Under the pieces are notes generated by a model. It was given only the letters and a program-made list of their open reading frames with translations, searched no databases and was not told the DNA's origin. Source: a virus. From it: a stretch of DNA of 64,000 nt. The stretch covers positions 57,998 to 121,997 of the IMG/VR virus record IMGVR_UViG_3300013006_000020; one strand, written 5' to 3'. Numbering within the stretch: the stretch's first letter is position 1; each line of letters opens with the position of its first letter. A program made the position numbers and the translations under genes. Of the stretch, positions 22,944 through 64,000 are shown piece by piece.

Positions 22944-22944
22944 A

Positions 22945-23729: not shown

Positions 23730-23739
23730 GTGTATTTTA
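23730..23739 (+). promoter_or_regulatory. Putative late promoter GTGTATTTTA
   Basis: Intergenic, upstream of ATG 23754. Confidence 0.6.
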
Positions 23740-23753
23740 TACAGGTAAATAAA

Positions 23754-36653: not shown

Positions 36654-36677
36654 CGCGCTCTATCTTTAATGGTCAAG

Positions 36678-36751
36678 CGTTCCCGGTTGGACTCGAACCA
36701 ACGACCTGCCGCTTAGAAGGCGGCTGCTCTATCCAGCTGAGCTACGGGAAC
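36678..36751 (-). tRNA. tRNA-Arg(UCU)
   Basis: Canonical cloverleaf; anticodon loop CTTCTAA; GTTCGA T-loop; no encoded CCA. Confidence 0.95.
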
Positions 36752-37103
36752 AGTGCTTTAGTATGATACTACACGACATCCATCAAAGATGCCACGCCAA
36801 AACTCTCGAATTTTCAAAAGTTCTTTTTTTGTGCACTGATATGAAACTGTACTGTATCCATAACTTGAAGAAACATTGAGGTGTTCAATATCAAAATTTT
36901 TGATTGCTGCACCGAATGTAATCATATCTTCTGGCGTATTTATCTTGACTTCAACTATAGCTGTCATAGTGATCCCTCTCTCATCTTATTAAAGATAAGG
37001 CAGAAAATAACTGCCTTGGACATAAAAAGTGTTACGTGAATAAGAATAGCAGCAGCCATTTCTGATGGCGTCCAGGTCTTTCCGTTTTGATCTGTGAATT
37101 CCA

Positions 37104-37670
37104 TTAGTTATTTTCCAGTCCCATCTTGTCCATTACTTGCATTAGTGAAATTGGCATATAGTTATTTACATCAACACCAACATCATATCTATTTTTAATT
37201 GTAGAAAATAGCTTACCGTGCGTGTGTCCGTGAAGATGAACCGATCCAAAATTCTGACTACTCCATGACTCAATCGGATAATGCATCAGAATTACTTTTG
37301 TGTGTCGTCTATTCTCAGGCATTGAAAGAAACAAATGCTTTCCTGAAATTTCTTGATATTCGTATATGCCCTTGAATGAAGTAGTTCGATTGTTAGCATA
37401 TGTAGCGGATGGGTCGTGATTGCCACACAAAAGATAAACATTCTTGCACTTAATGCGATCAAGAATTCTATTTACCTCAGTCTCCCATCTCTTTCCATTT
37501 GAGTGAAAACAAAAGTCACCAAGATGATAAAGATCATCACGCTCACTAACCATTGAGTTAATGTTATTTACAATAACTTCTTCCATTTGCTCCATTGAAG
37601 AAAATGGTCTATTGCAGTACTTAATAATGTTTGAGTGCCCAAAGTGTGTGTCAGATGTTAGCCAGATCAT
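37104..37670 (-). CDS. Calcineurin-like metallophosphoesterase
   Basis: SDTHFGH, LGD, GNHD, HYP, HGHTH, VGVD. Confidence 0.9.
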   Translation of the reverse strand: MIWLTSDTHFGHSNIIKYCNRPFSSMEQMEEVIVNNINSMVSERDDLYHLGDFCFHSNGKRWETEVNRILDRIKCKNVYLLCGNHDPSATYANNRTTSFKGIYEYQEISGKHLFLSMPENRRHTKVILMHYPIESWSSQNFGSVHLHGHTHGKLFSTIKNRYDVGVDVNNYMPISLMQVMDKMGLENN

Positions 37671-37985
37671 GTTAATTTAAATCAGTATGCTGTAGAAATA
37701 ACCGCAGCAGCAACAAGCAGCATTGGTATTATTACAAAGAAAATGGTAATTATTATAGCTGTATATGAAACTACTTCTTCAAAAATTTCAGCTTTTGTTT
37801 TTCTTCTTTGGGTAGTTTGGGTATCCCCAGTCCCGTGGTTCTGTAACTGCTTTTTCTTTGTCACAAAATCCACATATTCCTGTATGGTATGTTGATACTC
37901 GTATTGCTTTTTTGGCATTTATTTCTTTCGCGCAGTCATTGCAGATCCACGCGGGATAATTATCTTCGGTGAATTTTTTCATAAA

Positions 37986-38058
37986 TAGGGCCGGTGGGAT
38001 TCGAACCCACACTTTATTGATTTTGAGTCAATTGACTCTGCCGTTGGTCTACGGCCCC
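37986..38058 (-). tRNA. tRNA-Leu(CAA), short variable arm
   Basis: Cloverleaf; anticodon loop CTCAAAA; A73; GGTTCGAATCC. Confidence 0.88.
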
Positions 38059-38087
38059 AAGCTTCCCCAGTCGCATTGGGGTATCAT

Positions 38088-38744
38088 TTACATCATATAA
38101 TCGGCAATAATATCTAGCAATTCTTCTTTTGTGATTTCTTGTTCTGGCTTAAATAATCCATCATTTTTAATGATATTATGCATAATTGCCTCAAGACGCT
38201 TTTTAACAACAGGATATTTGTTCTTAAATGTTATTGCTACCCCACGATCACGTGTGTCTAGTCTATCTGAATGAACCCCAGAGTCTCCTTCAAAACAGCC
38301 CTCAATCAGCACTAGTTCTTTAGATGAAAAATATCGATTAAGCGGAGAGCTTTTTAGATTTTCAAAACAATCATAAACCTCTTCACCGTTATCAAACTCT
38401 ACACCATTAAATAGATTAACTGATGAAACAAAAATTGATCCTAGAGCGCAAACCCTACAGTTTTTTACCTTCTTGGTGTAGTCCTGTGCGGGAAATGGCA
38501 TTAAGCGACAAGTATCATCACTTTCAAGGTACCGCTCTACTCCATCAGAAACGATTTCTTCTAGTGATCCCATCTTTGGATCTTCCATCCACACGCCAAC
38601 CTGTGGAATAATCTTCCTGGTCTTGATCTGTGAAATAACATCCTTGGCAATAGCAACACGCATTTGATTCTTTGTTAGTGTCTTCTTCTTTGTCTTAGTC
38701 TTTGTTTTAGTAGCCATTTTTATCCTTATAGTGTCTTTGAGCAA
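38088..38744 (-). CDS. Hypothetical phage protein
   Basis: RVAIAKDV, CRVCALG, LIEGCFE motifs; long ORF. Confidence 0.55.
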   Translation of the reverse strand: MLKDTIRIKMATKTKTKTKKKTLTKNQMRVAIAKDVISQIKTRKIIPQVGVWMEDPKMGSLEEIVSDGVERYLESDDTCRLMPFPAQDYTKKVKNCRVCALGSIFVSSVNLFNGVEFDNGEEVYDCFENLKSSPLNRYFSSKELVLIEGCFEGDSGVHSDRLDTRDRGVAITFKNKYPVVKKRLEAIMHNIIKNDGLFKPEQEITKEELLDIIADYMM

Positions 38745-41218: not shown

Positions 41219-41291
41219 TGCCTCCAGTAGGGATCGAACCTACGACCTATCGGTTAAAAGCCGAATGCTCTACCATCTGAGCTATAGAGGC
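41219..41291 (-). tRNA. tRNA-Lys(UUU)
   Basis: Canonical cloverleaf; anticodon loop CTTTTAA. Confidence 0.95.
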
Positions 41292-41295
41292 GTAA

Positions 41296-41366
41296 TGCGT
41301 AGTCCCAGTGCTGCCCTGGTTTGAGCCGATTATAAGTCGGCCTGCGAAGCTGTCCGCCCACTACGC
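41296..41366 (-). tRNA. Non-canonical tRNA-Ile(UAU)
   Basis: 7-bp acceptor GCGTAGT/ACTACGC + A; anticodon arm GCCGA-CTTATAA-TCGGC; aberrant T-loop; 4 nt from tRNA-Lys. Confidence 0.7.
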
Positions 41367-41811
41367 GAAAGTACTTATTCTAGTCGCTCTCCTCAGGACT
41401 TTCTTCTTTTGTGAGCACGATTTTGCTCTTTTTGTTGTTTACGTGCCCAGTGGCATTAGTAATAAAGTAATTGGACTTTTGTCGATCATCATCGTGACCA
41501 AGACGATAATTGATTTGATCAATGCCCATACTTGTAATTTTTTCTTTATTAAGCATAGAAACAATCGCCAAAGAAAAATCTCTAGCGTCGTTTTCGTTAA
41601 ACGGCATTGGGATGTCGATATGTAATCTGTACATTACTTTTGCTGTGTTACAAAAGATACTGTGATTGGACCAACACGAGATTCAAACATACCATTAGTG
41701 TTTGAGATGTTTAGACCCCAAACAAAAGGCCAAACTTGAATCGTGGAAGCAACCAAATTGTTACCAAAACCAATACCAAAATTAAAGGTTCCCAAATGCT
41801 GCATAAACTTG

Positions 41812-42324
41812 TTAATTGTTTTGATCATTTTCCATTTCCTTAGTTAGTTCGTCAATTTCTTCTTCTGAGGACACAACGTCTTTGACCGCTTGCGCTGTTG
41901 CATTTACCATTTCAGTTTGCTCATCAGCATTAGAAACTCCTGCAACTTCAGCAAGGGTTGCTTTTGTAAAAGCAACTAGTTGTTTAATTTTTCCACCTAT
42001 TGGGGTGTAATTTCCAGTTCCATCTTCATCTTTGTGAAGATCTTTTGGGCAATTAGATTTTGGCATCCACAGCCGTGGGCTATAATCTTTTTCAACCTCA
42101 ACAGTAGGATCGTAAAGCGCTGCAAGATCTCTAGTTCCACAACCGCAAGAGCCACAAAACATTTTACCATCACGTGGTCTTTTTTGAACTTGATCACACC
42201 CTTCGCAAGCTTTTCTTCTCTCTTGGTAAACATCAAGAGATACACAGCCGTTTTTCATTAAACCTGAAAAAGACTGTAGCAGCTGCGTTGCTTTGGTGAT
42301 ACTAAACTTGGTATCTTCTGACAT
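41812..42324 (-). CDS. Cys-rich DUF6171-like protein
   Basis: R...CEGC...CGSCGC...CP. Confidence 0.5.
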   Translation of the reverse strand: MSEDTKFSITKATQLLQSFSGLMKNGCVSLDVYQERRKACEGCDQVQKRPRDGKMFCGSCGCGTRDLAALYDPTVEVEKDYSPRLWMPKSNCPKDLHKDEDGTGNYTPIGGKIKQLVAFTKATLAEVAGVSNADEQTEMVNATAQAVKDVVSSEEEIDELTKEMENDQNN

Positions 42325-42335
42325 GGCTAGTTATT

Positions 42336-43346
42336 TTAGCAACTAGAGCACGGTTTTAACAATGACCAAAGAAAGAATTTATTTGCTTCATAAACATTAA
42401 GCCCTGTATATTCTCCTGCTGGACCAGTAAAACAATTAATTGTTGTTGGGAACGTGGTATTGGAAACTCCGCATGGTACTAGAGATGGAACGATAGTAGC
42501 CCCTTCAAGGCTTCTCTGCCAAGCAAACATATTTCTATCTCCAAGATACATGATATAGCCCTTTTCGATTTTTTCGTAAGCAAAGGGTCTTAGTGTTGAT
42601 GTTGTTGCTGGGCAGCAAAGCGAAGGATTAGGAGGTGGACCAATACATCCGCTATTAAGATTTGTAAATGACGCAGAAATATCATTTGTCAGCGAAATAC
42701 CACCAGATGAGTGACCAACACCAAATGCAGAAATCCAGTGTTGAGTTGCTTCTTCAGATGACTTAAATATTTCACCATCTGGATCATTAGACGGTACTAG
42801 AACCCTTCCTGTCCAGTACCTGTTAATCTGTGTTCCAGCGCAAGAACAACCAAGATTTGCTTGTGTGCATGTAGTGATATTAGCTGTAGCCACATCTGGA
42901 AGTATAGTTAGTCCAGATGATACACCATTTCTACAAGCAGTCAATGTTGTATTCATGGTATTCAGATTTGCTTCTGTAGTTCCAGCGGCGGTACCAGAAG
43001 CGGTTCTGCTTACAGTATCTCCAATTGCTACAATCTTCCCTCCATTTCTAACATATTCATAAAGCTTTGCATTTACCGCTGATGCACTTCCAGTACCAAG
43101 CCAATTATCATAACTTGGATACAAGGAAGGCGTCTGGAGTGATGCACCTGTAAGCTGTACAAGACCAAAATATACTACAGAACAAGTGTTTAAGGTTTCA
43201 ATGCTATCAACGCGAATAACATTGGCTTTGCCATCGTACATTTTTTCAAAGTCAGTTTTGCACGGCGAAGCTACTGTGCCTGCAAATATTGTTGCATCTG
43301 TAAGAATTCCAATGTTGTTGCAGCAGCAAACCCTATGATTGCTCAT
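42336..43346 (-). CDS. Cys-rich putative virion/tail protein with N-terminal CCC
   Basis: Start refined to ATG 43346 (MSNHRVCCCNN) directly after GTGTATATAC motif at 43351..43360. Confidence 0.55.
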   Translation of the reverse strand: MSNHRVCCCNNIGILTDATIFAGTVASPCKTDFEKMYDGKANVIRVDSIETLNTCSVVYFGLVQLTGASLQTPSLYPSYDNWLGTGSASAVNAKLYEYVRNGGKIVAIGDTVSRTASGTAAGTTEANLNTMNTTLTACRNGVSSGLTILPDVATANITTCTQANLGCSCAGTQINRYWTGRVLVPSNDPDGEIFKSSEEATQHWISAFGVGHSSGGISLTNDISASFTNLNSGCIGPPPNPSLCCPATTSTLRPFAYEKIEKGYIMYLGDRNMFAWQRSLEGATIVPSLVPCGVSNTTFPTTINCFTGPAGEYTGLNVYEANKFFLWSLLKPCSSC

Positions 43347-43419
43347 TTCAGTATATACACCTACATATTGTGGGTGTGAACAACTTGAAATTAAACAACC
43401 AAGACTAATAATGATTGGC

Positions 43420-43824
43420 TTAATCATCAATTCCACTCGCGTAAAGACCTGATGTGGTAAAATAAACAGACTCAGCGTAATGGACAGCCCTGTGTGGATT
43501 GTCCTTAATATGGAAAAATGCCATCTTATATGGGTCGTATGTAATCTTTACTGCGTGTGGCGGAAGCTCGTAATCATCAGGCATTGTCTTGAAAATTCCG
43601 CGAACACCAGCGTGAACATTCTTTTGGTTGGTTTGCAGAACCCTTGCCCTACCAGCCTGTGAAACTTTTAGGTTTGCGTTTTTGATAATAAACCCATGCG
43701 GATAGTGCGTAAGAACACGCTTATGCTTCTCTCCGCGAATTGAAAAGCAGTTTTTATGAAGGTTTCGATACACAAAAACAAGAACATTATCAATGGGCAA
43801 AGTCAGTGTCATGATCAACTCCAA
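43420..43824 (-). CDS. Conserved phage hypothetical protein
   Basis: VYRNLH...GR.RVL...KNVHA...YDPY motif. Confidence 0.6.
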   Translation of the reverse strand: MELIMTLTLPIDNVLVFVYRNLHKNCFSIRGEKHKRVLTHYPHGFIIKNANLKVSQAGRARVLQTNQKNVHAGVRGIFKTMPDDYELPPHAVKITYDPYKMAFFHIKDNPHRAVHYAESVYFTTSGLYASGIDD

Positions 43825-44015
43825 GCTCGATTGTTAGAACCAGGTGCGCAACTTGACTCATTTCAACAGGTGTGTCGCCGTAGTGCTTCATCACCCAATC
43901 AAAAATATCTTTTACCGATGAAAAATAATGATTTTCTCCACCAATAAAAGGGTCACCAACCATAAGAACGTATTTACCATCTCCATCATAATCAATTTGA
44001 AGCGATTTTTCTGCA

Positions 44016-44477
44016 TTAAGCATATTCGTACCATCCGTTGTCTGTGCTGTAAATAACCCGTCTAATTTCTGGACACGCCAAGATTAACTGTTGGCATGAT
44101 TTGCATGGCTTTGAGTTTCTAAGAATAGGAACCCTTTCAGATAGTGATGATGAGCTAAGTCTAATATTTACTAGAGTTGCATTATAAAATTCGTTTGACT
44201 TCTTTGCTTTCAAAATAGCTGAAAGCTCTGAGTGCATTGTTCCAAATCTACAATTAAACTTAAGAGCCAGTGGGTGCGTTTGCATACTTCTATTAACGCC
44301 AAGGGCAATAATTTTACTTCGTCGCAAAACAAAAGAAACATGCTTAGAGTCAGAGTCAATATCTTCAATAAGAGACATTGAAATATCAGCGCATTTTGTC
44401 AGCCTTGAAATCATAGCAGGATCAAGGAGAAGAGATCCTTTTGACTGTTTGTCACGATTGTGACCATCAGAAGTCAA
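44016..44477 (-). CDS. Cytidine/dCMP deaminase-fold protein
   Basis: HSE (HAE-like) and SKPCKSC zinc motifs; start uncertain. Confidence 0.75.
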   Translation of the reverse strand: MTSDGHNRDKQSKGSLLLDPAMISRLTKCADISMSLIEDIDSDSKHVSFVLRRSKIIALGVNRSMQTHPLALKFNCRFGTMHSELSAILKAKKSNEFYNATLVNIRLSSSSLSERVPILRNSKPCKSCQQLILACPEIRRVIYSTDNGWYEYA

Positions 44478-44957
44478 TTCACTTTGCGTCTGACGGATCG
44501 TGCTCGTCGTTGTTATCTGGATCATCGTTAATAAACTCGTAATCGCTTTCTGTTTCGCCAACGCTCTTAAGTCTGTAATTTTCCCATACTGGTGCAGAAG
44601 AACAATTCCATTCGCATAAAAGCTGACGCATTACATTGATCTTAGTCTCCATTTCAAATAGCAATTTAATAACCTCATTTGTGTTTGCAAAATTAATGTT
44701 GAACTTTTTAAGATCAATTGTGTTTTCTTCACTCATGAATTATCCTTTTACAAATTGCAATCCAACGATTACATTGTTTTCAATTACCGCTGCAGCAAGC
44801 CACGTTTTATTTCCAATTTTTATACGCTTTTCACTAATGTAATCTGCAACATTGGCTGTAATCCATGTTCCGTCTGGCAGATTAAATCTAGAATCTTTAG
44901 AGATATTGGTCTTGTACCATATCCCATCCATTGACATCAGGTGTCTTAGATAACTCA

Positions 44958-45566
44958 TTATAGAACCGCTCCCCACTGTTCAGCCATCGCCTTAGCGATT
45001 CCTGGAAATGTTTTTGATCTCATCTTTGCTCTTTCAAAAGGGGAAAGCTTGAATGCATCAGCATACCACTTTGGCATTGTCTTTCCACTTTTGTATTTCA
45101 CAACCTCCCCTGCTGAAACAATATTAGTTGGCTTCAAGAGCGGAAGATTCTTAAGCCATAGACAAGTCTTCTTGCTAAACGAGTCGCCAAATTGATATGG
45201 CTGAATGATTTGATCTGGCTTTCGCCAAACACTAGACATCACACCAACTGGATTCTCAATGGCAATCTTGTCACACTTTGCTGTGGCAAAAACCATAAAG
45301 AAATCAATACCTTGCTGTTGTCGCCCATCCTTTCTTTTCTGCTCAAACCATGCAGCACCAGAAACAGCTAGATGCGTACACGGAGGAAAGGCAATAATCA
45401 TATCCCAATCCTGATCAAGAAGTGGCAGAACATCTTGCTGCAAATGCCATTCTGGATTTGATCCGCTGCAAGGCGCAATATCACAGGAGAAGGCTTCATG
45501 ACCAAGAAGCCTAAATTCCTTTGTTACCGCCTGACTCTCTTCACAAGCCAAAAGAATTTTTGCCAT
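44958..45566 (-). CDS. DNA cytosine-C5 methyltransferase-like protein
   Basis: LACEES, CDI, FPPCT (catalytic PC), IENP. Confidence 0.7.
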   Translation of the reverse strand: MAKILLACEESQAVTKEFRLLGHEAFSCDIAPCSGSNPEWHLQQDVLPLLDQDWDMIIAFPPCTHLAVSGAAWFEQKRKDGRQQQGIDFFMVFATAKCDKIAIENPVGVMSSVWRKPDQIIQPYQFGDSFSKKTCLWLKNLPLLKPTNIVSAGEVVKYKSGKTMPKWYADAFKLSPFERAKMRSKTFPGIAKAMAEQWGAVL

Positions 45567-45917
45567 TATAAACCCCTTCTGTTATTAAATTCCTATTGAA
45601 GGATCTAGAGATATCATCATGTAATATCCTAGCGCAAGATAACTAAACACAAATATAGATATCATAAATACGACCCATATAATGTCTAGTATTTCTAGTA
45701 GTTCACTTTTATTTATTTTGTACTTTACCATCCGATGAAAGGCTCTTTTTTCTGAAGCTCAACAAAGTATTCTTTTTCTGGAAACGTTTTTGATGCTGAT
45801 GATATTGCCTTCTTCAAACCACAATCATCTAAAACCATCTCGCAATACACAGCTTCTTTTCTTTCGCTGATTTTGCGATATACGACAAACCAGGCAGGAT
45901 ACTTTCTTTTTTTCATA

Positions 45918-45950
45918 AAAATCTGGCCAGGGTTTTACCCCCAACCAGAC
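45918..45950 (-). terminator. Intrinsic terminator
   Basis: TCTGGTTGGGG...CCCTGGCCAGA plus TTTTT on the minus strand. Confidence 0.55.
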
Positions 45951-46459
45951 CAATTATAGTTTTTATCCAAGACTTCTTGAATACGATGCTTTTTCAATTG
46001 GGCAAACGCGTTCTTCAATCAACGACTTAAGTTTCTTTGCCTCGTCTTTTGTCCCATTAAACAAAACCCAAAACTCGTCGTGTCCTGGAACAACACCTAG
46101 ATTAAATTCTGGAAGCTCTCTTGTTACTGTTACACAAAAACCATCCATATCAACCGCATTAATTCTAAACTTATGGTAAGACATTAGTCTTCCTTAATTT
46201 CAAAAACAATGTAAGAATTTTCAGGGAGAGCACTGAGATCACACTCATCGTCAAGAATGCGTTGCTTTAGGCGGGTCGAATCCTTCTTTCTAAAAAGTTC
46301 GACATTACAAAAGTGGTTTTCGTCTTCACGATATGCATAAAATGAATTGTCAATACGCTGAATAACTAGAAAGCTCTTCATACTGTTTCCGTTCTTATGA
46401 GGAGTTTGGGGGATCTAGATACGGTCTAGACCCCCCATTGACTCCAGTTGCTATTTAAA

Positions 46460-47455: not shown

Positions 47456-47561
47456 TTCAGTGTCCTTGATGTTAAGGGGGAGGCGAAATAGCAACGCGCT
47501 ACTCATCCTCCCCCATACCAAAGTATTCTAGCAATTATTTTGTTGTTTGTCTGTCGTGTTT

Positions 47562-48410: not shown

Positions 48411-48429
48411 TGTAGTGGTTCCTTTGGGT

Positions 48430-50580: not shown

Positions 50581-50876
50581 GCTTTTCTAAAAGTTTCATC
50601 TTGCGATAAAGGTTCAATATTAACGGATGCTATTTTTTTACCAACTTCTTGAATTGTTTTATACTTGACAGACTGCGCATCTGCTTCGACTTCGTCTAAA
50701 ACAGATTCAATTACTTCAGTCTGAACACCAAAAGACACAGATATTCTAGCAGATTCTACGGCAGCAGATCTGAAAGAAGTAAATGTTTTTGCTGCACCAA
50801 CAGCAGAAAATGTGTTTCCGTTCCAGAAAAGCCCTAATGATTTATCGGACTTTATTTGACGTATTTGCAATGCCAT
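50577..50876 (-). CDS. Hypothetical protein
   Basis: Preceded by GTGTATTACA motif (50880..50889). Confidence 0.5.
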   Translation of the reverse strand: MALQIRQIKSDKSLGLFWNGNTFSAVGAAKTFTSFRSAAVESARISVSFGVQTEVIESVLDEVEADAQSVKYKTIQEVGKKIASVNIEPLSQDETFRKA

Positions 50877-52999: not shown

Positions 53000-54960
53000 G
53001 CATGAATTTATGTTGATCGATCAATCTGCGCCTTCTTTCTCTTGTCGTTCGCTTTCAGCAAGTCTTTTGAGTACCGTACTGTATTGGTCATTGACTCTTT
53101 CAATAGACCTTTTGAGTGAACTGTCTGCGGTTTCTTCAGAGTCGCTTTGTTGACTTTTGTAATGGTCTGTATTCACAAATCTTCCCAGTTATTATCAATT
53201 ATATCTGCAATTGACTTGAACGAAAATCCACTGTTGTCATTTATATATGCAAGCGTTGTGCCGCCCAAGCTTCCATCATGAGACCTCATCTCAGCCCAGG
53301 TCTTTACTTCTTGAGGAAGAAGAGCTGGTTCATCTAAATACTTTTTCTCATTGGAGTCTTCGACCTCAGCCCAGTGATTTCTAGTTTCCTTTGCGTGAAG
53401 ATCACAAAGAACACCAAGACAGCAAAAGTGATTATTACAAAGAAGCATAAAACCTCCCTGCTTATACTCACCAGATCGCAACGCTGCAGACCATTGTTCA
53501 GCAATTTGCTTGTTCATTAGACTCCTAGATCCTTGAAATAGTTTGAGTTCTGCTCGTCAAGAATGTTTTCTGCTTCTCGCTCTTCTTCGGTTATTGAATT
53601 GTTGTGGACGTAATCCATGAGGGCATCTGCGCGCATTTCAATAAAGAAAAAGTCTTCTTCGGTCATCTTTGCGCTAGCCTTCTGCAAAATGTCACTGATG
53701 TAAACGCCAATGCTTTTTGCAACCTTCTTGTCGATCTTTGGATCCATTTTAGATACCTCCCCAATCCTTATGAAGTCCAGCGATCCAAGTTTCTTGGTAA
53801 CCAAACATGTACGCTTCAATCTCATCTGGATCAGTCAAGGAAATCCTTTCACCCTTGTAGGTTCCGTCTGGATACTTATGTGGATCACGTGGACGATTAT
53901 ACCAAGCGTCTGCAGATCCTCTGTCGTAAGGTGAGCCATGCCAATCTGGATACTTTTTGTCCATGTCAATCTCCTTCATCATCGTCAAATCTATCATTGT
54001 CTAGGTAGTCTTCAAGGTCCGGACCGTATGTATGATCATACCATGCCTGTCGCTGCTCCTCCTGGTATTCCAAACTCATGTGTTCCTCCCCCGTCTTATA
54101 ATTTTCACTATAAGGCTTCTTTGGATCCACAAAATTGCTTTCAAGAATCTCAAGAATGTCCGCAATGTTCTGCTCTTGGATCATGAAAGACGGCAGCTCG
54201 TGGCTCAAACTTTGACCGTCTTGACACAAAGAAAAGAATGACTGAATTGAGTCGTCTTCAACCATCTTTTCAAAGTTCGACCAAAGTTCTGAAATCTTTT
54301 CGTCTGAGACATCAATTAGCATAATTACTCTTGGCATTTGAAATTACTCCAATTCGTTTTCACGAGCCTGTTCCATACGATGCTCAGCATTTACATTTGA
54401 GTAATGCTCAGCAGCCTGTGAAGCCCAATCGTTGTCTTGGGCGTCCTCAATGCAAATTTCCTCAAGGTGCTTGGAAACAACAGACTTGAGTTTATTTACA
54501 TCGTAGTTTTCTTCTTCAATTGCTGTATAGTCCACATCAATCCTTTCGCAAAGAATGGAAATGATTTCTACGATCAGAGGCTCGTATCGGCTATGGAAAA
54601 TGCCATACTGTGGCTCTGGTGGAAACAGATCCCACTTGGTAATTTCAAACTCCACATGAAGGAGACAGTTTCGCCCAAAACAACACTCAAGATCTGACTT
54701 AAGTGGCTCGCTCCTAAGGGCATTAATGTCAATTTCGGTTGTAAAGATCTTACCCATTGCCTTCATCCTCCAAAATCATAAGGTGTCCAGGTCCATTTCC
54801 TTCGGGATCTCGCATAATTAGACAGTCAAACTTTCTGCCCTTCTTTTCAATTCGCAGGCCATAGCAGCTTTCATAATCCTGACCATCAACAAGAACTTGA
54901 GTGATAACACCGCCAACTAGGGGAAGAAGGTATTCAATTTCGGGGTCGGTCTTGATGCGC

Positions 54961-55658
54961 TTAGCCATTTGTGTTCTCCTGCTTAAAACAGTCCCATCCA
55001 CGATCATCTGCAATTCGTTCTGGCTCTCTATAGTTCTCTAATGAATCTGCGGTCTGTCTGCAATACATCCGCCTCGCCTCGTCGCGCTCACGCAACGCAT
55101 CAACGAGTTGATTGTTGAGGTTCTTGATCGTTTCGTTCAGGTACTCGCGCTCTTCTTCGCTCACTTGTCGTCCTCCTTGAAACAGTCCCATCCACGGACA
55201 ACAGAGTGAAAAATTGGATTACTGCTATCGGTTCCATCAGCAGATGGATTCATAGCAAGAACCCTACAAAGCTCCCTCCTTGCCTGATCGCGTTCGGATC
55301 TTAGTTCATCTTTGTGACGATAGAAGATATCTCTGAAATTCTGTATCTCAGGTGAGAAGCCAGTATGACCATCCTTGAAGCAATCCCATCCCTTTGAGTG
55401 AGCATAGTCACCTCCAAGGAAGCCAGTCATGTGCATCATACTACAAACATCACGCCTTGCTTCATCGCGTTCCTTAATGAGTTGTTCAATCCGCCCATCG
55501 TAAATTGCCTTTTGCTCAATCAACAAAGTTCTGATCATTCCTGACATAGTGTTCTCCTTAAGATCCCAATTGATCCTTCTTATTTCCATACAAAGCACGA
55601 ATGACAAGAGATGCCTTTGCACGGTCAGAAAGTCCGCCAAGAAGACGCTGCTGCACAA
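54961..55658 (-). other. Two small ORFs with ERDEARR...C...GWDCFK repeats
   Basis: 55161..55658 has two copies and 54961..55191 has one. Confidence 0.6.
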
Positions 55659-57009
55659 AACTAAGTTGGGAGTCAGTCATGTTCCCATCAGCAACAAGCT
55701 TCTCAATGAACTCCGAAATTCCCTGACATTGGTTGACATACAGCAGTTCGTAAATAGACAACTGCCTGTCATCGTTCGCTGGTCGAATGTCAGTAGACAT
55801 TACCTTAATTGTTTCCTGCTTGTTTCCATCCTTTGATCGTGCCATCTTTAGTCTCCAGTCAAAGAAAAGTCCACGGAGTCGATCCCACACCAAAGCACAA
55901 AACGCGTTTCTGAGCAGCCAGGGCTGCTTTTTGATCGTATTTGAACACTCCAAACGCACCCACTCAGTCTTAACAATACCGTCTGTATACATAGGAGTAA
56001 GACAGATAAGGGTATGAAAAGACTCGCGGTCTACGAAGGTGTCATGAGGAGTTTCATCAGGTAAATTATCTTTCACAGAAGTCCTCAAATCAAAGTTTGG
56101 TTTTTCGTGGTTTTCTGTGGTCATAACGGTATTGTGGATGTTGTGGTGGTGGGTTTCTGTGGTTTTAGAATGTTTTATGTGGTCTTAACGAAAGCAGTCG
56201 TTTGCTCCGTTGACTTCAGGAGAGATCCCACCAATGTCGGCACCATTCATCATTCTTATCACCGTTTTGATAAGCCCAATTGCGATATTGGGTGTTTGCT
56301 TTGATCCAGGCATTAGAGAGATCTGTGTAGAGAGTGTTGTAAAACTCCACAACATTCTCGTTAGTAGCCTTATCAAGTCTTTCTGCTACACGTTCTGCCT
56401 TTCTCATTAGATGTTCAGAGGCAAACCGGATCTTACGTTCGTGCTTTTTCTTTTGGCTCATTATGGCTATTCTTTTGGTTATGACTCATCAGAAGCGTCT
56501 TCGGTAAAGATCTGATCCCATCCATCAGGAGAAATACCACTAATGATGAACTCCCTATCTGCTGTGCTCAGATAAGGAAAAGCATTCTGGGCTAGCTTTC
56601 TACGCTCCTGCCAATCCACAAAGTCCTGTAGCTGAACAAAGACAGTGTAAGACTTGTGAGTAACAACGCAATTCTTGGTGATTTCAAACTTCATATCAAG
56701 CCTCCGTAAGAGCCTTTGCGAACCAACGAGCAAGACCGCCCCACATGCTGGAAATAAACAGACCGCAGATACCGTAGTATCCACCATGCCAGGCCATGTA
56801 GTAGCAAGTCATTATCACAACAAGACTTACAACGAAAGAAGCGACAATTATCCAGATTTTCCAAGTTGGCAGTTTCATGACTTTTTGAACTTTCTTTTAA
56901 AAGTGGCAATTATGTTATGGAATCGCCCTTTTGCTAACACCTATCATGTATGGGTTTGTCGTTGTAAGTGCGCTTTGTGTGAATGATTCTTCTTCTAGAA
57001 AGAAAGTAA

Positions 57010-57396
57010 TCACCACCAAGAAGTGTAGAAAACTCTCTTGTCTTCATCAAGGATTAACTGCTTAGCTTTCCTTACAAAGTCAAGGTCGTAAGAAATTTCA
57101 TCTTCGTGCCTAGAAGACTGACCAAAGAAGAAACCAACAGTGTCAGGAAGTCTATCCTCCTTAATAGTTTCTTCCAGGTTGTCCAAGTCATCAATGGTCA
57201 GCTCAACAGGAACGCAATTGAACTGGCTGTCCATACCACCCTTTTCTACATAAAGATTTTGCATCCATCCGTGAAGATTCGGGTGCTTTCGCCAGTAAGC
57301 AATCTCAAGACTGTCGTCGGGGCGAGCAAAGTCCACACGAACACCATCAGGAATCTCGTTTGCATCGCAAGCATAACACCACTGGTCTAGTCCCAT
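57010..57396 (-). CDS. Conserved phage protein (MGLD...YWRK family)
   Basis: MGLDQ, YWRKHPNLHGWM, GFFFG, YTSWW. Confidence 0.7.
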   Translation of the reverse strand: MGLDQWCYACDANEIPDGVRVDFARPDDSLEIAYWRKHPNLHGWMQNLYVEKGGMDSQFNCVPVELTIDDLDNLEETIKEDRLPDTVGFFFGQSSRHEDEISYDLDFVRKAKQLILDEDKRVFYTSWW

Positions 57397-57426
57397 TTGG
57401 GAGCCTTTCTGTGAGGAGTTTTCGGT

Positions 57427-57648
57427 TCAGCGCGACCTAGAATTTGCACGATCTGCCATTCTAATTGCTTCTACGTCTTCAGTTGGAATGCAGACAATCT
57501 CAGGGGCGGTCTTATGCGCAAAGACCATGTAACCCTTGAACGGTTTCTCATTTGAACACTTGATACAGCGGGTCGTATTTGGAAGTGCCTCTATACGAGC
57601 CGGTGGAATAACACATCCACATACAAGACAGGATTTAAGTGTGTCCAT
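57427..57648 (-). CDS. TraR/DksA C4-type zinc finger protein
   Basis: CLVCG..IP.ARIEALP.T..CIKC. Confidence 0.75.
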   Translation of the reverse strand: MDTLKSCLVCGCVIPPARIEALPNTTRCIKCSNEKPFKGYMVFAHKTAPEIVCIPTEDVEAIRMADRANSRSR

Positions 57649-58399
57649 AAGAAAGTGCTAGGAGAATGAGTGTTGAGATAATGAATCGTGCTTTATTAAT
57701 TTTTCGTGTCTCTTTTTCTAGCCTTGTCATATAGAGCCAAAGCCAGAAACATTGCAGTCCGTGCTAGTTCCTGTTCAGTTTGCGATTTTCCATCGTGCAC
57801 ACAGTCCATGTATGCACGAACACATGACGCGAGTTTTTCTGTTTCTGATGTCAAATTGGTCCATCAGTCAGATAAGCAACATCTGAAAGAAACTTTGCAA
57901 CAAAATCTGGGGACAAATCTGAAGCAACTCCGCTTCCGTCAAAGAAACCTTGCCATCGCTCTGCCAGGCCTTGAGGAAAGCTCTCGGGAGAAACACCATC
58001 CCCCTTCCACATGATCATCACTTCTGCTGTGTTGGAGTCAAAAGAAGAGTTCAAGCGCTCTTTGTGACTGGCAAAAGTATTTCTGTTTGAACAGTAGCAC
58101 ATCCATCCCCACTGTACAGACACCGAGTAGCCATTGGGAAAATCCATGGCAAATCCACGATGACCAATGACTGACTGATCAGAAGCTTTAAAACAAGAAT
58201 CACTCATTGAAGGATCTCTTTCCATAAAGGGTTTGTGTTGCGACTCGAACGTCATCAAGAACTCTATTCAATTTTGAAGACAAAACAGGATCCTTTATTT
58301 CCTCACAGAGAGTGAGCAAGCTCATCCCCGCTCGAGAAACAGAGCAAACTGCACGAGCACGATCTTCTTCTGTCATCTTATTCAATACCAGACCTCAGA

Positions 58400-58440
58400 A
58401 AAGAGAAAGGGGGTGGCGCCCACACTGAACGCCACCCCCA
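58400..58440 (-). terminator. Intrinsic terminator
   Basis: GGGGGTGGCG/CGCCACCCCC stem followed by pyrimidine/T run. Confidence 0.65.
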
Positions 58441-58457
58441 CACAAACCGACTCAGAC

Positions 58458-58871
58458 TTAGGCGCGGAGACCAGCCGACTTGAGAGCTGCCGTGTTGTTC
58501 TCGACAGCCTGAGACTTCTTCTGAGCAGCAAACAGCTCAGTCACAACATCATCACGGTGGATGCTACCCTTACCGGTGGTTCCACGTGCGATACCAGCGA
58601 GAGCAACAGCACGCTCCATCTGGCGGTCGATAGCTGCGATAGCAGCTGCCTTCGCGGACTCACCGAAAGCACGCAGGGTGTCCTCGGTGACTGGAACAGA
58701 CGCGTTCAGAAGCGACGCGACCTGGGCGTTGAGCTGAGACATGGCCTTCGACGGGGTCGCCTTGTCGTCACGGTACTCCGTCACCAGGGTCGTCAGCTGG
58801 GCTGCGCCCTTCTTGGTGGCGTTGATGGTGGAGGAGGCGATGGTCTCGACGGAGGTGTTGAGAGTGGTCAT
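58458..58871 (-). CDS. Ala/Thr-rich early protein, paralogue of 60057..60485
   Basis: NATKK, GTTG.G.IH..DV, ENN.AAL..AG shared; start refined to ATG 58871. Confidence 0.7.
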   Translation of the reverse strand: MTTLNTSVETIASSTINATKKGAAQLTTLVTEYRDDKATPSKAMSQLNAQVASLLNASVPVTEDTLRAFGESAKAAAIAAIDRQMERAVALAGIARGTTGKGSIHRDDVVTELFAAQKKSQAVENNTAALKSAGLRA

Positions 58872-58970
58872 TGTTAGTACCTTAAAGTGAAAAGTGCGTT
58901 TGAAAAGACGATGAGTAACACAGTATTGAGTTGATGATTTGCTCATCTGTTATGATGACAGATTTGAGTG

Positions 58971-59258
58971 TCAAGCCTTGGAAACGGTAAACGTCACACC
59001 GTTCATGGTGACACGAGTGATGGTGTCGCAGTTGATGTGGCGGAACTCGCCCTTCTGCATGTCAAAGACGGTGACCAGGTTCTTGGATGCAGGGTCATAC
59101 TTCATACCCTCTCCAGTAACACCCTTCTTCACACCGCCCCTACAGTTCATGTCGCGCTCCTCTCCATTGGTGCGCTTCACGAAAGTCACGCCGAAGACAC
59201 GGCCGGATTCCTTGGCCTCTTCGATCTTATTAATTGCTTCTGACAGAGTGATCTGCAT
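58971..59258 (-). CDS. SH3/WYL-like beta-barrel protein
   Basis: VTFVKRTNGE.R.M...VFDM.K..FR.I. Confidence 0.55.
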   Translation of the reverse strand: MQITLSEAINKIEEAKESGRVFGVTFVKRTNGEERDMNCRGGVKKGVTGEGMKYDPASKNLVTVFDMQKGEFRHINCDTITRVTMNGVTFTVSKA

Positions 59259-59593
59259 GTTGGTCTCTCTCAACTCATGGAATGGGCAGGAATCTCGAAG
59301 GAACGCTCCTTCACGATACGATCCTGCCATGGCTTGTCACCGACGACGCCGCTAGGCCCGGTCGAGTTCATGTATCCTTGGATCACAATCTCGACACAGT
59401 ATCCTCGCGGAACGTGCCGAAAGGTCTTGCGTGCGGAATCGCAGTAGGCATAGTAGAAGTCCTGCGCGGCAGCAAAGTTTTTGCCGTTATACAGAACCTC
59501 ACTCAGCTCTTCAACGACGCTTGAGTAATAGAACCTACCGTTCGAATCCGTGTGCAAACGATGCACGAGTTGCATAACCTTGACAAACTGCAT

Positions 59594-59675
59594 TTTGACC
59601 TCCTTTGGTCAACATAGACACTCCCAGTAGTGTCTGATTCATTCACTTAGCGGACTGGGCCGCTTTGAGGAGTTT
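59594..59675 (-). promoter_or_regulatory. Structured 5' leader with kissing hairpins and SD-containing hairpin
   Basis: Loops CCCAGU and ACUGGG are exact complements; third hairpin covers AAGGAGG. Confidence 0.55.
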
Positions 59676-60056
59676 GTGTTAGACTGTTACTTACTGAGCA
59701 CGAAAAAATCATCACCGCCGATTTCCTTGATCTTCTTAATCAAGTTGTCAGCCATGATAGAAGCCGCCATGCGCATGATGTCTTCTTCAGACAGACCGAT
59801 CTTCTGAGTCAGGCTATGGACAGTTTCCAGCTCTGCTTCACTCAGCATATCAGGTTCTGCAATTGACATCACGGTTCGCACAATGATGCGACCAAGCAAC
59901 TTCTCTGAACTATTCAGAGTCTGCATATTGGTCAGATCTTGTGCGGTTGCGATCAGGGCGGACACTTCTGAGTCTTCTTTCTTCATTGCATTTCTCCCTG
60001 GAGAGCCAGGGGTGAGGCGCTTCGGCCCCACCCCCAGGACTCCGATATGAGTTCTC

Positions 60057-60485
60057 TTACGACGCCATTCCTGCCTTGCGGAGGGCAGCGCTGTTGTTCT
60101 CCGTTGCCGTCTTCTTCGAGGCGGCGGCGAACATTTCCGTCTTCACATCAGCGATGTGGATGCCGCCCGGACCCGTGGTGCCATCCGGGATCTGCGACAG
60201 TTCCAACGCTGCCTGAGCCTCCTGCTCCACGAGGGCCACGATCTGCGCCTTCAGCGCCTCGTAGCCTGCCTTGATCGCCGTCATGCGATCCTCAGCGCTC
60301 ATGGTGCGGGTGTTCAGAACCTGACCCACGACGCGGCGCACCTGGGACACGGCGGACGATGCCGTGCCAGCCTTGCGGAACTCGACCACGATCTCGGCCA
60401 CGCGGGTAGCCTCCTTCTTGGTCGCGTTGCGAGCGACGTTAGCGGGCGAGGTGGTGACGGACGAAGTAACGGTGGAGTTGGTCAT
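60057..60485 (-). CDS. Ala/Thr-rich early protein, paralogue of 58458..58871
   Basis: Shared motifs with 58458..58871; followed by GC-rich hairpin at about 60008..60034. Confidence 0.7.
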   Translation of the reverse strand: MTNSTVTSSVTTSPANVARNATKKEATRVAEIVVEFRKAGTASSAVSQVRRVVGQVLNTRTMSAEDRMTAIKAGYEALKAQIVALVEQEAQAALELSQIPDGTTGPGGIHIADVKTEMFAAASKKTATENNSAALRKAGMAS

Positions 60486-60833
60486 AACCAACCCTTTCTG
60501 TGTGACTGAGTCACACAAAGCGTATTAGTCCCTCAACCTGAGACATTTCAGGAATGTAGGGTTACTGCAGGCGCCCCTGCAGAATTGTCTGTGAGAGGTT
60601 TCCCCCGCACAGACTGTGTTTATACGTTCAGCTTCAGATCTCCGCTGATGAGAGCGTCGATGAGCTGCCTGTGTCCCTGTGCAGCAATTTGGAATCCTTC
60701 CTCACGATCCTTTCGGACCTTCGTGACCTCTTCCTTGAGACGAGCGTTCTCTTCCTTGAGCCGCTGATTCTCAAGCATCATGTCCTGAATCTTTCCACAC
60801 AGTTCGAAAAAGTTGATCATATCTGGGTCCATG

Positions 60834-61316
60834 TCATTCTCCGATCTTCTCCCACCGACTGCGCATACGTTCAATGGCTTCGGTGGGAACGCCATGAACA
60901 TTTCCAAAGTTGTTGTGCATCTCAACAATGCACACTTCCCAGTCCGCTGAGAACTCTTCGCTCTTCGCCAGGTCGATGTACGGCTGCATCTCCCAGAGTT
61001 GAGTGAATGTGTTGGAGACAGCGACTGGAGTTGGGTCACCAATTCCACAAGTACTCACTGGCTTACCATAGGGATCCCACGGAACATTGTCCGTAAAGAT
61101 CTCATAGCGACTACGCATGGCTTTCTTCACACCTTCCAAGCACCACGCATGAGCATCGCGCAACTTGGTTTGATCGAACTTGTACTCACCAGTCTTGGGG
61201 TCGGTGAAGTACATGTCAGCCTCAAAGTAGTTGCCGTAACCCACGAGATGATGTGCAAGTGTGGACTTTCCAGATCCCGGCAACCCACGGATGATGTACA
61301 GGGTGCATGACTTCAT
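60834..61316 (-). CDS. AAA_33/N4BP2-like P-loop kinase
   Basis: RGLPGSGKST, EAD.YF, AH.WC, VSNTFT, HGVP. Confidence 0.85.
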   Translation of the reverse strand: MKSCTLYIIRGLPGSGKSTLAHHLVGYGNYFEADMYFTDPKTGEYKFDQTKLRDAHAWCLEGVKKAMRSRYEIFTDNVPWDPYGKPVSTCGIGDPTPVAVSNTFTQLWEMQPYIDLAKSEEFSADWEVCIVEMHNNFGNVHGVPTEAIERMRSRWEKIGE

Positions 61317-62241
61317 TCGAAGTTCCTTTCTGATGCACGATTCTTGCTGTTCCTCGACAAACGCCGCTGCAGATCCTCAGACAGATCCGCAATGTTTGCT
61401 AGCGTGGAACGCACCTCGTCGCGCTCCTTGACGATGCTCTCCATCACGAACTCGGAGTGGCGCTGCACACGCTCTAGCGAAGTGACTTTGCCCTCAAGAT
61501 CAGTCACTGACCGGGAAAGCTCTAGCTCCCGCATCACCATCTTGTTGTTCTCCTCCACGAGTTCACTGATCAGCGATCTCAGGTCGCTCAGAATCAGGTA
61601 CTCACCGAACGCACCCCGAACCATGGCCACCCCAGGACCGTGATCATTGCAAGCCCTGGCCTGAATGTTGCTGATGGACCCGTAGGCCTTGTCAACCCGC
61701 TCACTCAACTGCTTGTTCATACCAAACCTTCCTTTCTAGAAAGATCTATTAGCACCATGCCAATAGAAAAAGTCCGTACCCGATTTCTCAGATACGGACC
61801 GAATGCTAGAGACGGCGAACCGTCACAGGGCCGAAGCCTCTTCGCTGTGGGACTGAAGCACGTCCACTCTCGTATACACGATGTGGCACGCCTCGATGAA
61901 TGAAATGTTCCGGCGCTTCATCAGGCTACGAACAACCTGATGGATCAGTACGTCGATGTCTGCCATGGATCACTCTTCCTTGCCTTCGTAGGCCTTCTTG
62001 ACCTGACGACCCCAGAAGAACATGTCATACGCAAGATCCTTGGTATGAATCATGATGACCAGGGAGAACGAAAACAGCAGCCACTTGTTGATGTCATCCC
62101 CATATGGGAGATCAATGAAGAGCTGGGCGGCTCCCCAAATTGCCGCTATGGCAACAATCATCAGGAGAGCGAACTGGAAGATCGAACGGAAGAAACGCTT
62201 AACCATAACAGATCCTTTGCCATTGGCAAAAGGGTAAGAAA

Positions 62242-62296
62242 CCTGTGGCGTACATACCACAGGGAAAACTCTCCATAGCCGTTAAGCCATGGAGAG
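62242..62296 (-). repeat. Two-hairpin intergenic element, copy 1
   Basis: CTCTCCATGGC-TTAACG-GCTATGGAGAG TTTTC CCTGTGG-TATGTACG-CCACAGG. Confidence 0.6.
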
Positions 62297-62666
62297 CAGA
62301 GGGGGTGTAAGTATCAGCGCTCCATGAAGTTGAGCAGCATGGAGATGGCGTCCTCAGCAGCGCCAAAGCAGAGGTCGATGGCCCTGGGCTGATCGCCGTC
62401 CGTGGGGTCCATGCTACCGAAGTAGCACTCCTTCAAGCTGTCCCACAGGTCCACCACCTTGTCCAGGTTGACGTGGCTCCCGCCCAACTCCTCCGACAAC
62501 TCCACGATCAACTCCTTCATCTGTGGCTTCCTGATCGCCGTGTCGTCGCTGCTCTCCATGTGGCAGGCCAGGGTGGACAACGACTGCATGACGGCGTTGC
62601 AGCACAGGAAGTGAACCGGGGTCTTCTTCTGACGCATAGTAACTCTCCTATTCTGGAGTGTGAACA

Positions 62667-62721
62667 CTAGTGGCATACTTACCACTAGAAAATCCTCTCA
62701 CAGCAATCAAGCCATGAGAGG
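62667..62721 (-). repeat. Two-hairpin intergenic element, copy 2
   Basis: CCTCTCATGGC-TTGATT-GCTGTGAGAGG ATTTT CTAGTGG-TAAGTATG-CCACTAG. Confidence 0.6.
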
Positions 62722-62727
62722 TATGGT

Positions 62728-63246
62728 TTAGGCATTGCAGATGCGGTGGTTCTGCAAGAAGTGGAACAGGGCTGCAGTCACGTGAACATCACGCATGCAG
62801 TAGTCCTCCATCTCCTGCGACCACTGCGACCAGTCAGTGGACTTGCCAAAGTCCCCCTTCTCCATCCCAAGGCGCAGTCCCCACGCCTCAAGACTGTGTC
62901 GCCCCCACAATTCCCGAGGGAGTTTGTACTCGTTGTACCCATTGGGGAATGCGGACTTTGCGAGACGCCGTGCATCCTGCAGCACCACCCAGGACGGCAT
63001 CACGATGCGGTTGTTCGCGCACATCACACGGCGGTCGAACTCCACATTGAATCCGATGATCTCCTGTGAGTTCAGCGCGATGAAGTTGATGCCATGGCGG
63101 ACATCCTTCCCACGCCACCGGTACTCCTTGCCCTCGTCAATGTCCATGGCACACACACAGTGGACAGTCTTGAGGGAGGACGTGTCCCCCGCATTCCACG
63201 CCACGAAGTCGATGGCGTTCGTTTCGCAGTCAACGACGAGTCTCAT
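62728..63246 (-). CDS. Stand-alone DEDDy 3'-5' exonuclease (T7 polymerase exo-like)
   Basis: VDCET (ExoI), GFNVEFD (ExoII), HSLEAWG.RLG..KG, YCMRDV (ExoIII). Confidence 0.85.
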   Translation of the reverse strand: MRLVVDCETNAIDFVAWNAGDTSSLKTVHCVCAMDIDEGKEYRWRGKDVRHGINFIALNSQEIIGFNVEFDRRVMCANNRIVMPSWVVLQDARRLAKSAFPNGYNEYKLPRELWGRHSLEAWGLRLGMEKGDFGKSTDWSQWSQEMEDYCMRDVHVTAALFHFLQNHRICNA

Positions 63247-64000
63247 AGCAAACCTCCTCTTGCGGCAACTGCCGCCTTGAAGTCATGCACCACGCGAGCC
63301 TTCTCACGCAGTGCTGCCGCCTCCACTCTACGAGAGGGAGCCGGACGCCACTGAAGGGCAGCATCACGCTGCTCCACATGGCGATTGCGAGCCTTGGTGG
63401 ACGGTGACAGTCTGCCACGCAACTTAACGGCAGGCTCTTCCACCACCACCGTGTGTCCCAGGGCCATGGCACGACGCTCTTTGCCCACTGCAGGGATACG
63501 GTTACCACCCTGCTGGTCCACGATGAACCCCTTGGCTCCCGAGCGCTGCACAGTTCCCCCTGGCGTCTTGGGGTCTGGGAACCTCATCATCGTCAGGCCA
63601 CCACTGAACTCATTCGTTCTGTAGTGACCACTGAAGCGCCATTTGGTGATCGTCATTGGTTGTCCTCCTTTCAGGACTTTAGGACTGCATGCTGTTGAAT
63701 TCGTTGGGGTCGTAAGCCACGCCCTCAGCCCCGTGACCACAGTCATCACAGGTGCGCACCGTCCCCACTTGCTTAGTGTCTCCACCACACACACGGCACG
63801 TGATGGTCGCCTTGGCCCTCAGTCGCACAGACGATGGCATCGGCACACCAGACAGGCTCTCCTTCTTCGGCTCCTCTCCCGTGAACGGCTCCACCCTCAC
63901 ACAGGACGGCATGTTCTCGAGCATGGTCAGCAACTTCGTCAGCCCGCCCGTGGTCAGGAACTCCGGCACCTCATCCGCCGAAGGCTGCACGTACGTCAGA

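Follow-up and report, generated by a model that had tools for sequence, protein, structure and literature searches.

The 64,000-nt stretch examined here, called the window below, comprises the last 64 kb (positions 57998-121997) of a single 121,997-bp contig (G000:C1, also called G0/L036) and is the right-hand half of the genome of an uncultured freshwater lytic phage. This report concerns a GC-rich island that lies at the end of the window, and the gradient of codon usage and the tRNA genes that follow it along the minus strand. The G+C (GC) content of the whole contig is 40.5%, and an identical sequence of 123 nt is present at both of its ends, so that the molecule is either circularly closed or circularly permuted. 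Positions given below are those of the window unless they are marked as genome positions, which refer to the contig. The minus-strand genes fall into blocks in the order island, rII block, tRNAs and replication genes, and the structural genes are on the plus strand. Among the products encoded by the genome are rIIA, rIIB, a DnaB-type helicase, a family A DNA polymerase (PolA), a ribonucleotide reductase, RecA-like and glycosyltransferase proteins, and a portal protein. The rII block (46184-58385, minus strand) holds 24 genes, with the rIIA homologue at 48430-50580 (minus strand; phrog_612, E 6e-112) and the rIIB homologue at 47562-48485 (minus strand; phrog_609, E 4e-69). A protein of 354 amino acids (aa) is predicted to be an HK97-fold capsid protein: its AlphaFold model (mean predicted local distance difference test score, pLDDT, 68.9) is matched by Foldseek to the HK97-fold capsid proteins of T5, HK97 and others with a probability of 1.00 and E ~1e-10.

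The GC content is 39.1% over positions 1-46000, 42.4% over 46001-58400 and 54.9% over 58401-64000. Taken in steps of 300 nt, it rises from values of 0.42-0.49 to 0.59 within 58.2-58.4 kb, and the share of 60-nt lines with at least 55% GC is 1.4% before 58.4 kb and 52% after it. An initial annotation, made by a model from the sequence alone, had described this profile correctly: recomputation returned the same values for the 60-nt lines at 5041 and 63841 (35% and 65% GC), the same intermediate composition from about 46 to 58 kb and the same jump near 58.4 kb, here from 42.4% to 54.9%. Its statement that gene orientation is unbroken was likewise borne out, as the conserved open reading frames (ORFs) are on the minus strand on either side of the jump. 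The part of the island within the window extends from 58409 to 64000 (minus strand), with genes whose GC content at third codon positions (GC3) is 0.56-0.86. The window ends inside the island, which continues to genome position ~2,050; genome positions 1-~2,050 are ~60% GC, followed by an abrupt fall to 33-45%, and a single GC-rich tract of ~7.6 kb thus spans the point where the contig ends meet. In codon use, the island is sharply bounded upstream and passes gradually into the following genes downstream. A terminator-like hairpin (58409-58439, minus strand) with a 14-bp stem, ten G-C pairs and a T-rich tail marks its downstream edge exactly and is nearly invariant in two relatives, G001 and G002, amid variable flanks. 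This strong hairpin and its T-run suggest that the island is transcribed as a separate unit. The island contains several strong hairpins. We also note that a gene for an HNH homing endonuclease with fully AT-rich codon use (genome 2116-2637, minus strand; phrog_59, E 2e-28) abuts the upstream edge, and that the region upstream of the island differs in length among relatives, with ~2.5 kb of extra AT-rich DNA in L039.

The abruptness of the jump, and nothing else, would favour an assembly chimera at about 58.4 kb. The jump is bridged by contigs from three other studies, namely X2 (57417-63685, with 3 differences), X13 (55425-61927) and X4 (58114-59333). Furthermore, G001 (122.6 kb) is collinear at 80% identity over an alignment of 7,736 nt that begins at genome position 1079, passes the contig end and reaches window position 57412, and the island is internal to the contig in both G001 and G002 (125.5 kb). 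We therefore consider a chimera, which the initial annotation had raised as a caution, to be ruled out, with only a negligible residual probability. The island was found at its site in seven of the seven related contigs that reach it: this contig, G001, G002, G003, those of L039 and L040, and G004; the contig of L038 stops short of the site and is not part of this count. In G004, a distant relative in which most proteins are 40-65% identical, the jump is at the same syntenic point and goes from 27-34% to 65% GC. Eight short contigs from an RNA library (X15) match at 99-100% identity at 46.6-47.4 kb and 57.0-61.7 kb; as the run was picked using this stretch, DNA carry-over is possible and the comparison covered 44-64 kb, these matches are uninformative on timing or level, and the gaps between them are no evidence.

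Sequence nearly identical to the window, or to part of it, is found in 20 runs of lake and freshwater metagenomes, which come from 12 studies; at least half of the sampled words of the window are present in 14 of these runs. The relatives were located with the exonuclease-like protein of the island (62728-63246) as the anchor. A search with a 128-aa anchor returned only two already known genomes, a search with rIIA among viral contigs yielded no new relatives and a single metagenome scan gave four loci, of which just one includes the region of the structured RNA described below. A close DNA search against cultured phages found zero matches, and a distant one found a single 58-nt match to the ATPase of a Paracoccus phage. 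Searches with rIIA, the terminase, the capsid protein, PolA and a DUF932-like protein gave distant matches or none, from which no host was inferable, and Pfam scans of additional genes gave no clue to the host.

Codon usage was analysed in 173 ORFs, which were selected by length and, within the GC-rich part, also by conservation of their strand in relatives. Per 1000 codons, ATA occurs 1.4 times in the island, 4.7 times in the rII block (46.2-58.4 kb), 11.7 times in the zone of transition from the rII block to the tRNAs (41292-46183, minus strand), 18.2 times in the tRNA zone, 28.2 times in the replication genes and 32.2 times in the plus-strand structural genes. ATA use thus climbs monotonically along the minus-strand gene direction, and TTA, AAA and AGA follow it overall, apart from small reversals near the tRNA zone. 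We term the genes of the island and the rII block early and compare them with all other (bulk) genes; these classes rest on gene order, rIIA/rIIB homology and terminators, not on measured timing. ATA accounts for 20 of 321 Ile codons in the early genes versus 897 of 2278 in the others (6% versus 39%), TTA for 13 of 417 versus 439 of 2209 Leu codons (3% versus 20%), AAA for 69 of 351 versus 1317 of 2100 Lys codons (20% versus 63%) and AGA for 53 of 352 versus 663 of 1406 Arg codons (15% versus 47%), with Fisher p values from 1e-21 to 1e-52 across the four. Ranked by bulk/early ratio among the 61 codons, ATA is first, TTA second, AAA third and AGA fifth, and AAA is the commonest codon in the bulk genes. 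The contrast amounts to a GC3 of 0.67 in the island versus 0.30, and to 20-fold for ATA. All three codon regimes recur in the orthologues of G001 and G002; the initial annotation had named the gradient in relatives as a check.

The rII block shows how the codon bias differs from a change in overall composition. Its GC3 is 0.42, and A-ending codons are avoided: the frequency of A at third positions (A3) is 0.21, versus 0.32-0.36 elsewhere, and that of T (T3) is 0.37, which is the genome-wide value. A tRNA with G at the wobble position (G34) decodes T-ending as well as C-ending codons, and A-ending codons require a tRNA with U there (U34). The drop in A3 at a steady T3 therefore points to selection at the level of tRNAs and not to a general shift in GC. 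A decaying GC-rich remnant would regain A and T jointly, which makes the rII-block pattern unlike decay. In the island, GC3 (0.67) is higher than the GC content of the local non-coding DNA (0.50-0.58). The gene for the predicted capsid protein, presumably the most expressed late gene, avoids ATA (4/23) and TTA (1/31) as the early genes do. It favours AGA (11/19), whereas rIIB and the DUF932-like gene each use AGA for none of 18 Arg codons. A preference of the capsid gene for AGA is the expectation if a tRNA-Arg(UCU) is plentiful late, and the strongest single hint that the phage tRNA-Arg(UCU) alters which codons count as good late in infection comes from the contrast with rIIB and the DUF932-like gene.

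Searches with ARAGORN at default settings and with Rfam (E<=10 over 36-46.5 kb and E<=1 over 30-64 kb) agree on just three tRNAs in the region searched, all on the minus strand and scoring 62-71 bits against RF00005. These are tRNA-Arg(UCU) at 36677-36751, a tRNA with anticodon CAA, called as Leu, at 37985-38059 and tRNA-Lys(UUU) at 41219-41291, the last also present in G001 and G002. The tRNA-Arg(UCU) is the most conserved of the phage tRNAs and lies at the same syntenic place even in G004, at 40-65% protein identity. Of the four tRNAs listed by the initial annotation, the readers of AGA, UUG and AAA are therefore present on the minus strand as described, and the fourth, a reader of AUA, was found neither by ARAGORN at default settings nor by Rfam over 30-64 kb. 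Two CAT candidates that ARAGORN reported at a low threshold lie inside ORFs, lack support from Rfam and were rejected. The tRNA(CAA), 75 nt in length, has a variable loop of 5 nt and a D stem of 3 bp, which gives it a class I shape; bacterial tRNA-Leu normally carries a long variable arm. It differs by one base within the tRNA among this phage, G001 and G002, with variable flanks. It is thus an unusual tRNA, with a Leu anticodon on a class I shape, and its Leu identity is putative. Two of the three tRNAs serve heavily used and skewed A-ending codons and sit where the gradient turns, and their placement in its transition zone agrees with the position between the two regimes that the initial annotation had assigned to them.

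The island genes are small and mostly restricted to this lineage. An ORF of 162 aa (58458-58946, minus strand), of no known family and 90% identical in relatives, is a paralogue of one of 153 aa (60057-60518, minus strand; GC3 0.81), which is lineage-restricted with four database relatives. The two paralogues are 40% identical to each other (E 6e-23) and 90-97% conserved among relatives; they belong to no Pfam family, one has a marginal PHROG match (E 8e-4), the ESM Atlas gave no lead on an island paralogue, and the pair is confined to the lineage, with four matches in 5.8 billion proteins. A P-loop ATPase or kinase-like protein (60834-61316, minus strand) matches PF13671 (AAA_33) and phrog_2071, and a DnaQ/PolA-type 3'-5' exonuclease-like protein is encoded at 62728-63246 (minus strand). 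A phrog_2267 protein is also encoded. The 3' part of a Cys-rich ORF of 149 aa, which crosses the contig junction, occupies 63679-64000 (minus strand). This gene content fits an early host-takeover region, without being proof of one.

Just past the window end, directly upstream of the Cys-rich ORF, the island holds an element of ~830 nt (genome ~260-1,090, minus strand) that is 93-100% identical in long blocks between genomes whose genes in its neighbourhood differ at 20-60% of third positions. Its insertions and deletions are not multiples of three and it contains no conserved ORF. In an analysis of six sequences from ~2-3 lineages, RNAalifold folds it with 243-267 base pairs. In the consensus of 243 pairs, 98.7% of cells are standard pairs and 27 pairs have changed on both sides, compared with 0-3 in structures slid by 1-3 columns, and none of 500 shuffles reached the observed value. 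On the gene strand the folding energy is far below that of mononucleotide shuffles (z = -5.9), which is not so on the opposite strand (z = -2.0). A search against Rfam 15 gave no family match, even at E<=10. From these sequence comparisons, the element is a well-supported candidate for a large structured phage RNA, possibly of a new kind. Fragments of its 3' part occur upstream of homologues of the 149-aa ORF on the metagenome contigs L091 and L092; nhmmer found no trace of it in the 1.5-kb island end of G004 or in G005, a distantly related viral contig, which is not evidence of absence. The element resembles large ornate phage-associated RNAs such as GOLLD and ROOL (PMC12286853) in its size of several hundred nucleotides, its elaborate conserved structure, its phage-borne occurrence in lake metagenomes and the presence of a tRNA gene within ~2 kb, here in relatives. 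It is unlike them in lacking an Rfam 15 family match and in being known from sequence alone.

The GC-rich state of the island is not recent, and it is maintained. The first island ORF is 24% identical between G004 and this phage (E 6e-9), with a GC3 of 0.77 and 0.69, respectively. As silent sites are saturated at this divergence, the state is an equilibrium and not a relic, and the persistence of both the GC jump and the ordered codon gradient down to 24% protein identity means that they must be actively maintained. Polarised changes at third positions of the island number 45 from G or C to A or T versus 35 in the reverse direction, which implies an equilibrium GC3 of 0.65; these counts come from parsimony with a distant outgroup and from few island changes, which tells against resting much on them. 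For the bulk genome the polarised changes are 2534 from A or T to G or C versus 1413 in the other direction. This bulk result is probably either a parsimony artefact of the distant outgroup or a true rise in GC in G001 and G002; we have set it aside and use the island result with caution. A test for amelioration showed no net drift toward the composition of the recipient. Median synonymous differences are 0.19-0.25 in the island versus 0.37-0.42 elsewhere, and the island proteins have diverged no more slowly than those of the remaining genome. The presence of the island among relatives, in all seven contigs, is not patchy. The genome as a whole is a mosaic: G001 and G002 group together over most of it, and 17 of the 147 genes compared group this phage with G001, including those at genome 8444-9304 and window 60834-61316 and 56479-56787. 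L090 has the RNA type of this phage together with a neighbouring gene of the G001 type, and recombination within the island is thus visible.

Our preferred explanation, to which we give roughly even chances, is that the early genes are adapted in their codons in a graded manner and that the phage supplements the tRNA pool for the genes that follow. The codon signature supports adaptation to a tRNA pool in which decoders of A-ending codons are scarce. Under this explanation the whole genome would drift toward AT, and the genes translated first would be held by selection to codons that are well read by the tRNAs of the uninfected host. T-ending codons would be tolerated through G34 wobble, and A-ending codons would depend on scarce U34 tRNAs. 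The two phage tRNAs with U34, Lys-UUU and Arg-UCU, would then add decoding of AAA, the commonest later codon, and of the strongly skewed AGA. The host in question would have a pool poor in U34 tRNAs and would probably be GC-rich, and we infer this, the early timing and the benefit of the tRNAs from the pattern itself. The bulk/early ratio serves here as a proxy for the match between phage and host codons; AAA ranks third, AGA fifth and UUG 38th by this measure, and by our own arithmetic the chance that two of three random codons fall in the top five is ~0.016.

Several observations weigh against this explanation, or at least against its sufficiency. The phage has no tRNA for ATA or TTA, the two most skewed codons, and the most mismatched codons are therefore not the ones that its tRNAs cover; the bulk genes nonetheless use ATA at ~29 per 1000, and the host must therefore read ATA adequately. 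The initial annotation had named AGA, AAA, AUA and UUG as the codons to compare between regions, and the difference holds for the first three (Fisher p 1e-30 to 1e-52). UUG, the codon read by the third phage tRNA, goes in the opposite direction: it is slightly commoner in the early genes (17% versus 12% of Leu codons) and ranks 38th of 61 in bulk/early ratio. The capsid gene avoids AAA (1/17) despite the phage tRNA-Lys. Codon use is fully AT-rich in the three minus-strand genes next to the island on its upstream side, with ATA at 36.9 per 1000. In all three relatives scanned there (G001, G002 and G003), a second, different tRNA-Arg(UCU) lies inside the island, which departs from the simple placement of the tRNAs between the regimes. 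The site corresponds to 62200-62313 (minus strand) and the relatives' tRNA is at 1501-1574 in L017, L016 and L015; here a shorter unrelated stretch is followed by a conserved hairpin (62242-62263), and this phage has lost the island copy. The use of AGA in the rII block is 16.9 per 1000 in the G001/G002 orthologues versus 11.3 here, which is a weak hint only. Lastly, the GC excess of the island extends to first and second codon positions (0.57 versus 0.48 and 0.44 versus 0.40, respectively) and to non-coding DNA (0.50-0.58 versus 0.36). Together with the large structured RNA in the island, this makes codon selection alone insufficient. The initial annotation's proposal of codon matching as the cause is accordingly retained for graded adaptation and supplementation and does not account for the excess outside synonymous sites. 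Its stronger claim, that the tRNAs license an AT-rich programme as a translational timing switch, is not supported, as ATA and TTA are uncovered and UUG is not enriched in the AT-rich genes; we regard the finding as a sharp example of a known principle and not as a proven switch.

The same excess at codon positions 1 and 2 and in non-coding DNA is what a composition-level explanation would predict, in which selection acts on DNA or RNA, the island is host-like in GC and codon effects are secondary. We consider this possible, at odds well short of those of codon adaptation. In one variant, the island would escape host factors that target AT-rich DNA, either silencers of the H-NS, MvaT, Lsr2 or MucR type or AT-directed defences; in another, its GC content would follow from the dense packing of structured RNAs and terminators. 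The ~830-nt RNA, the strong hairpins, the tRNA present in relatives and the persistence of the GC-rich state over deep divergence with no net decay all accord with it, and the existence of silencers directed at DNA that is richer in AT than the host genome is established (PMC8476142, PMC9410896). It leaves unexplained the purely codon-level signature of the rII block, with A3 lowered and T3 the same, and the excess of island GC3 over intergenic GC. No anti-silencer gene was recognised among the island proteins scanned. Selection on composition is compatible with graded codon adaptation, and both may act together. A related and equally tentative reading is that the lineage has long kept the island as a host-mimicking landing zone: the first-expressed ~7.6 kb would be host-like in codons, amino acids and non-coding DNA and organised around the ~830-nt RNA.

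The recombination seen within the island bears on a further alternative, that it is a mosaic cassette which came from GC-rich phages sharing the host of this one and has been exchanged with them repeatedly, so that its composition reflects the donors. Some island genes are nearest to G001 (91% versus 62% for the ATPase) in a genome that mostly pairs G001 with G002, L090 mixes RNA and neighbour-gene types, the exonuclease-like protein has relatives of 31-36% identity on viral contigs of 63-65% GC, and the homing-endonuclease gene abuts the upstream edge. Sharp borders, small genes of unknown function and such an adjacent gene are shared with horizontally acquired compositional islands in general. 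Unlike those, this island has no integrase, and a comparison of its borders found no flanking repeats longer than 8 nt, only chance 8-mers in common. It occupies one fixed site throughout the lineage (seven of seven contigs, including the relative at 40-65% protein identity) and shows no amelioration, with no GC-to-AT excess (45 versus 35). Most of its proteins occur only in this lineage, and no GC-rich donor of them is apparent; the graded, A3-specific bias of the core rII block would remain unexplained. We therefore regard a cassette origin as unlikely, slightly more so than selection on composition. The tRNAs invite a separate alternative, namely that they are counter-defence spares for host tRNAs cut by anticodon nucleases and that their position by the gradient is coincidental. 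tRNA-Lys(UUU) is a classic target of PrrC- and PARIS-type nucleases, the tRNA(CAA) is mismatched to the codon skew and has its unusual class I shape, and the relatives retain two different tRNA-Arg(UCU) genes. AAA and AGA are nonetheless among the most used or most skewed codons and the capsid gene prefers AGA, and we consider this the least probable of the biological alternatives.

Comparison with other systems places graded codon adaptation with tRNA supplementation among known strategies. The early and late codon patterns of T4 are a related known case. A difference in codon usage between early and late phage genes has been reported by Mioduser, Goz and Tuller (2017; PMC5683454), and the present phage shares with theirs a significant synonymous codon difference between groups of presumed expression phase. 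It is distinguished by the extreme and spatially graded contrast, by a 15-point jump in GC that includes non-coding DNA and by classes that are drawn from gene order. AT-rich cyanomyoviruses that infect high-GC Synechococcus carry tRNAs for AT-rich codons (Limor-Waisberg 2011; PMC3152331). Those are low-GC phages with few tRNAs, mostly U34, that match over-used codons, as in the present case, and Arg-UCU belongs to their minimal tRNA set. The present phage has three tRNAs, of which CAA does not fit. Furthermore, adapting and supplementing are found here in one genome, separated by position, and part of the genome is GC-rich. Lacusarx (PMC5648845) is a different phage with no bearing on the finding. 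The viral contig G005 (L077-L084; 154 kb, 39.8% GC), with a capsid protein 39% identical to that of this phage, takes an alternative route. It has just a small rise in GC at its ends, without a comparable island, and carries 32 tRNAs, 29 of them clustered at 97-101 kb, which include Ile-UAU (2), Leu-UAA, Lys-UUU (2), Arg-UCU and a normal long-arm Leu-CAA.

As an observation apart from the island, five plus-strand ORFs of 241-328 aa and 42-44% GC (20280-24560) lie within the minus-strand replication region; Pfam scans of four of the five gave zero matches.

Host-matched early genes and phage tRNAs for AT-rich codons are both established ideas, mostly seen as modest genome-wide trends, and keyword searches of the open-access literature returned no account of a sharply bounded, lineage-conserved, GC-rich early island in an AT-rich lytic phage. 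Here the two strategies stand side by side in one abundant freshwater phage lineage. If the landing-zone reading were true, the island would be the means by which an AT-rich genome is transcribed and translated, and avoids silencing or defences directed at AT-rich DNA, in the period before its own tRNAs and takeover functions come into play. Two by-products are open to testing, the large unclassified structured RNA and the unusual class I tRNA with a Leu anticodon. In our view, the lineage offers a clean natural test of how strongly the first minutes of infection are constrained by translation or by AT-directed host factors.

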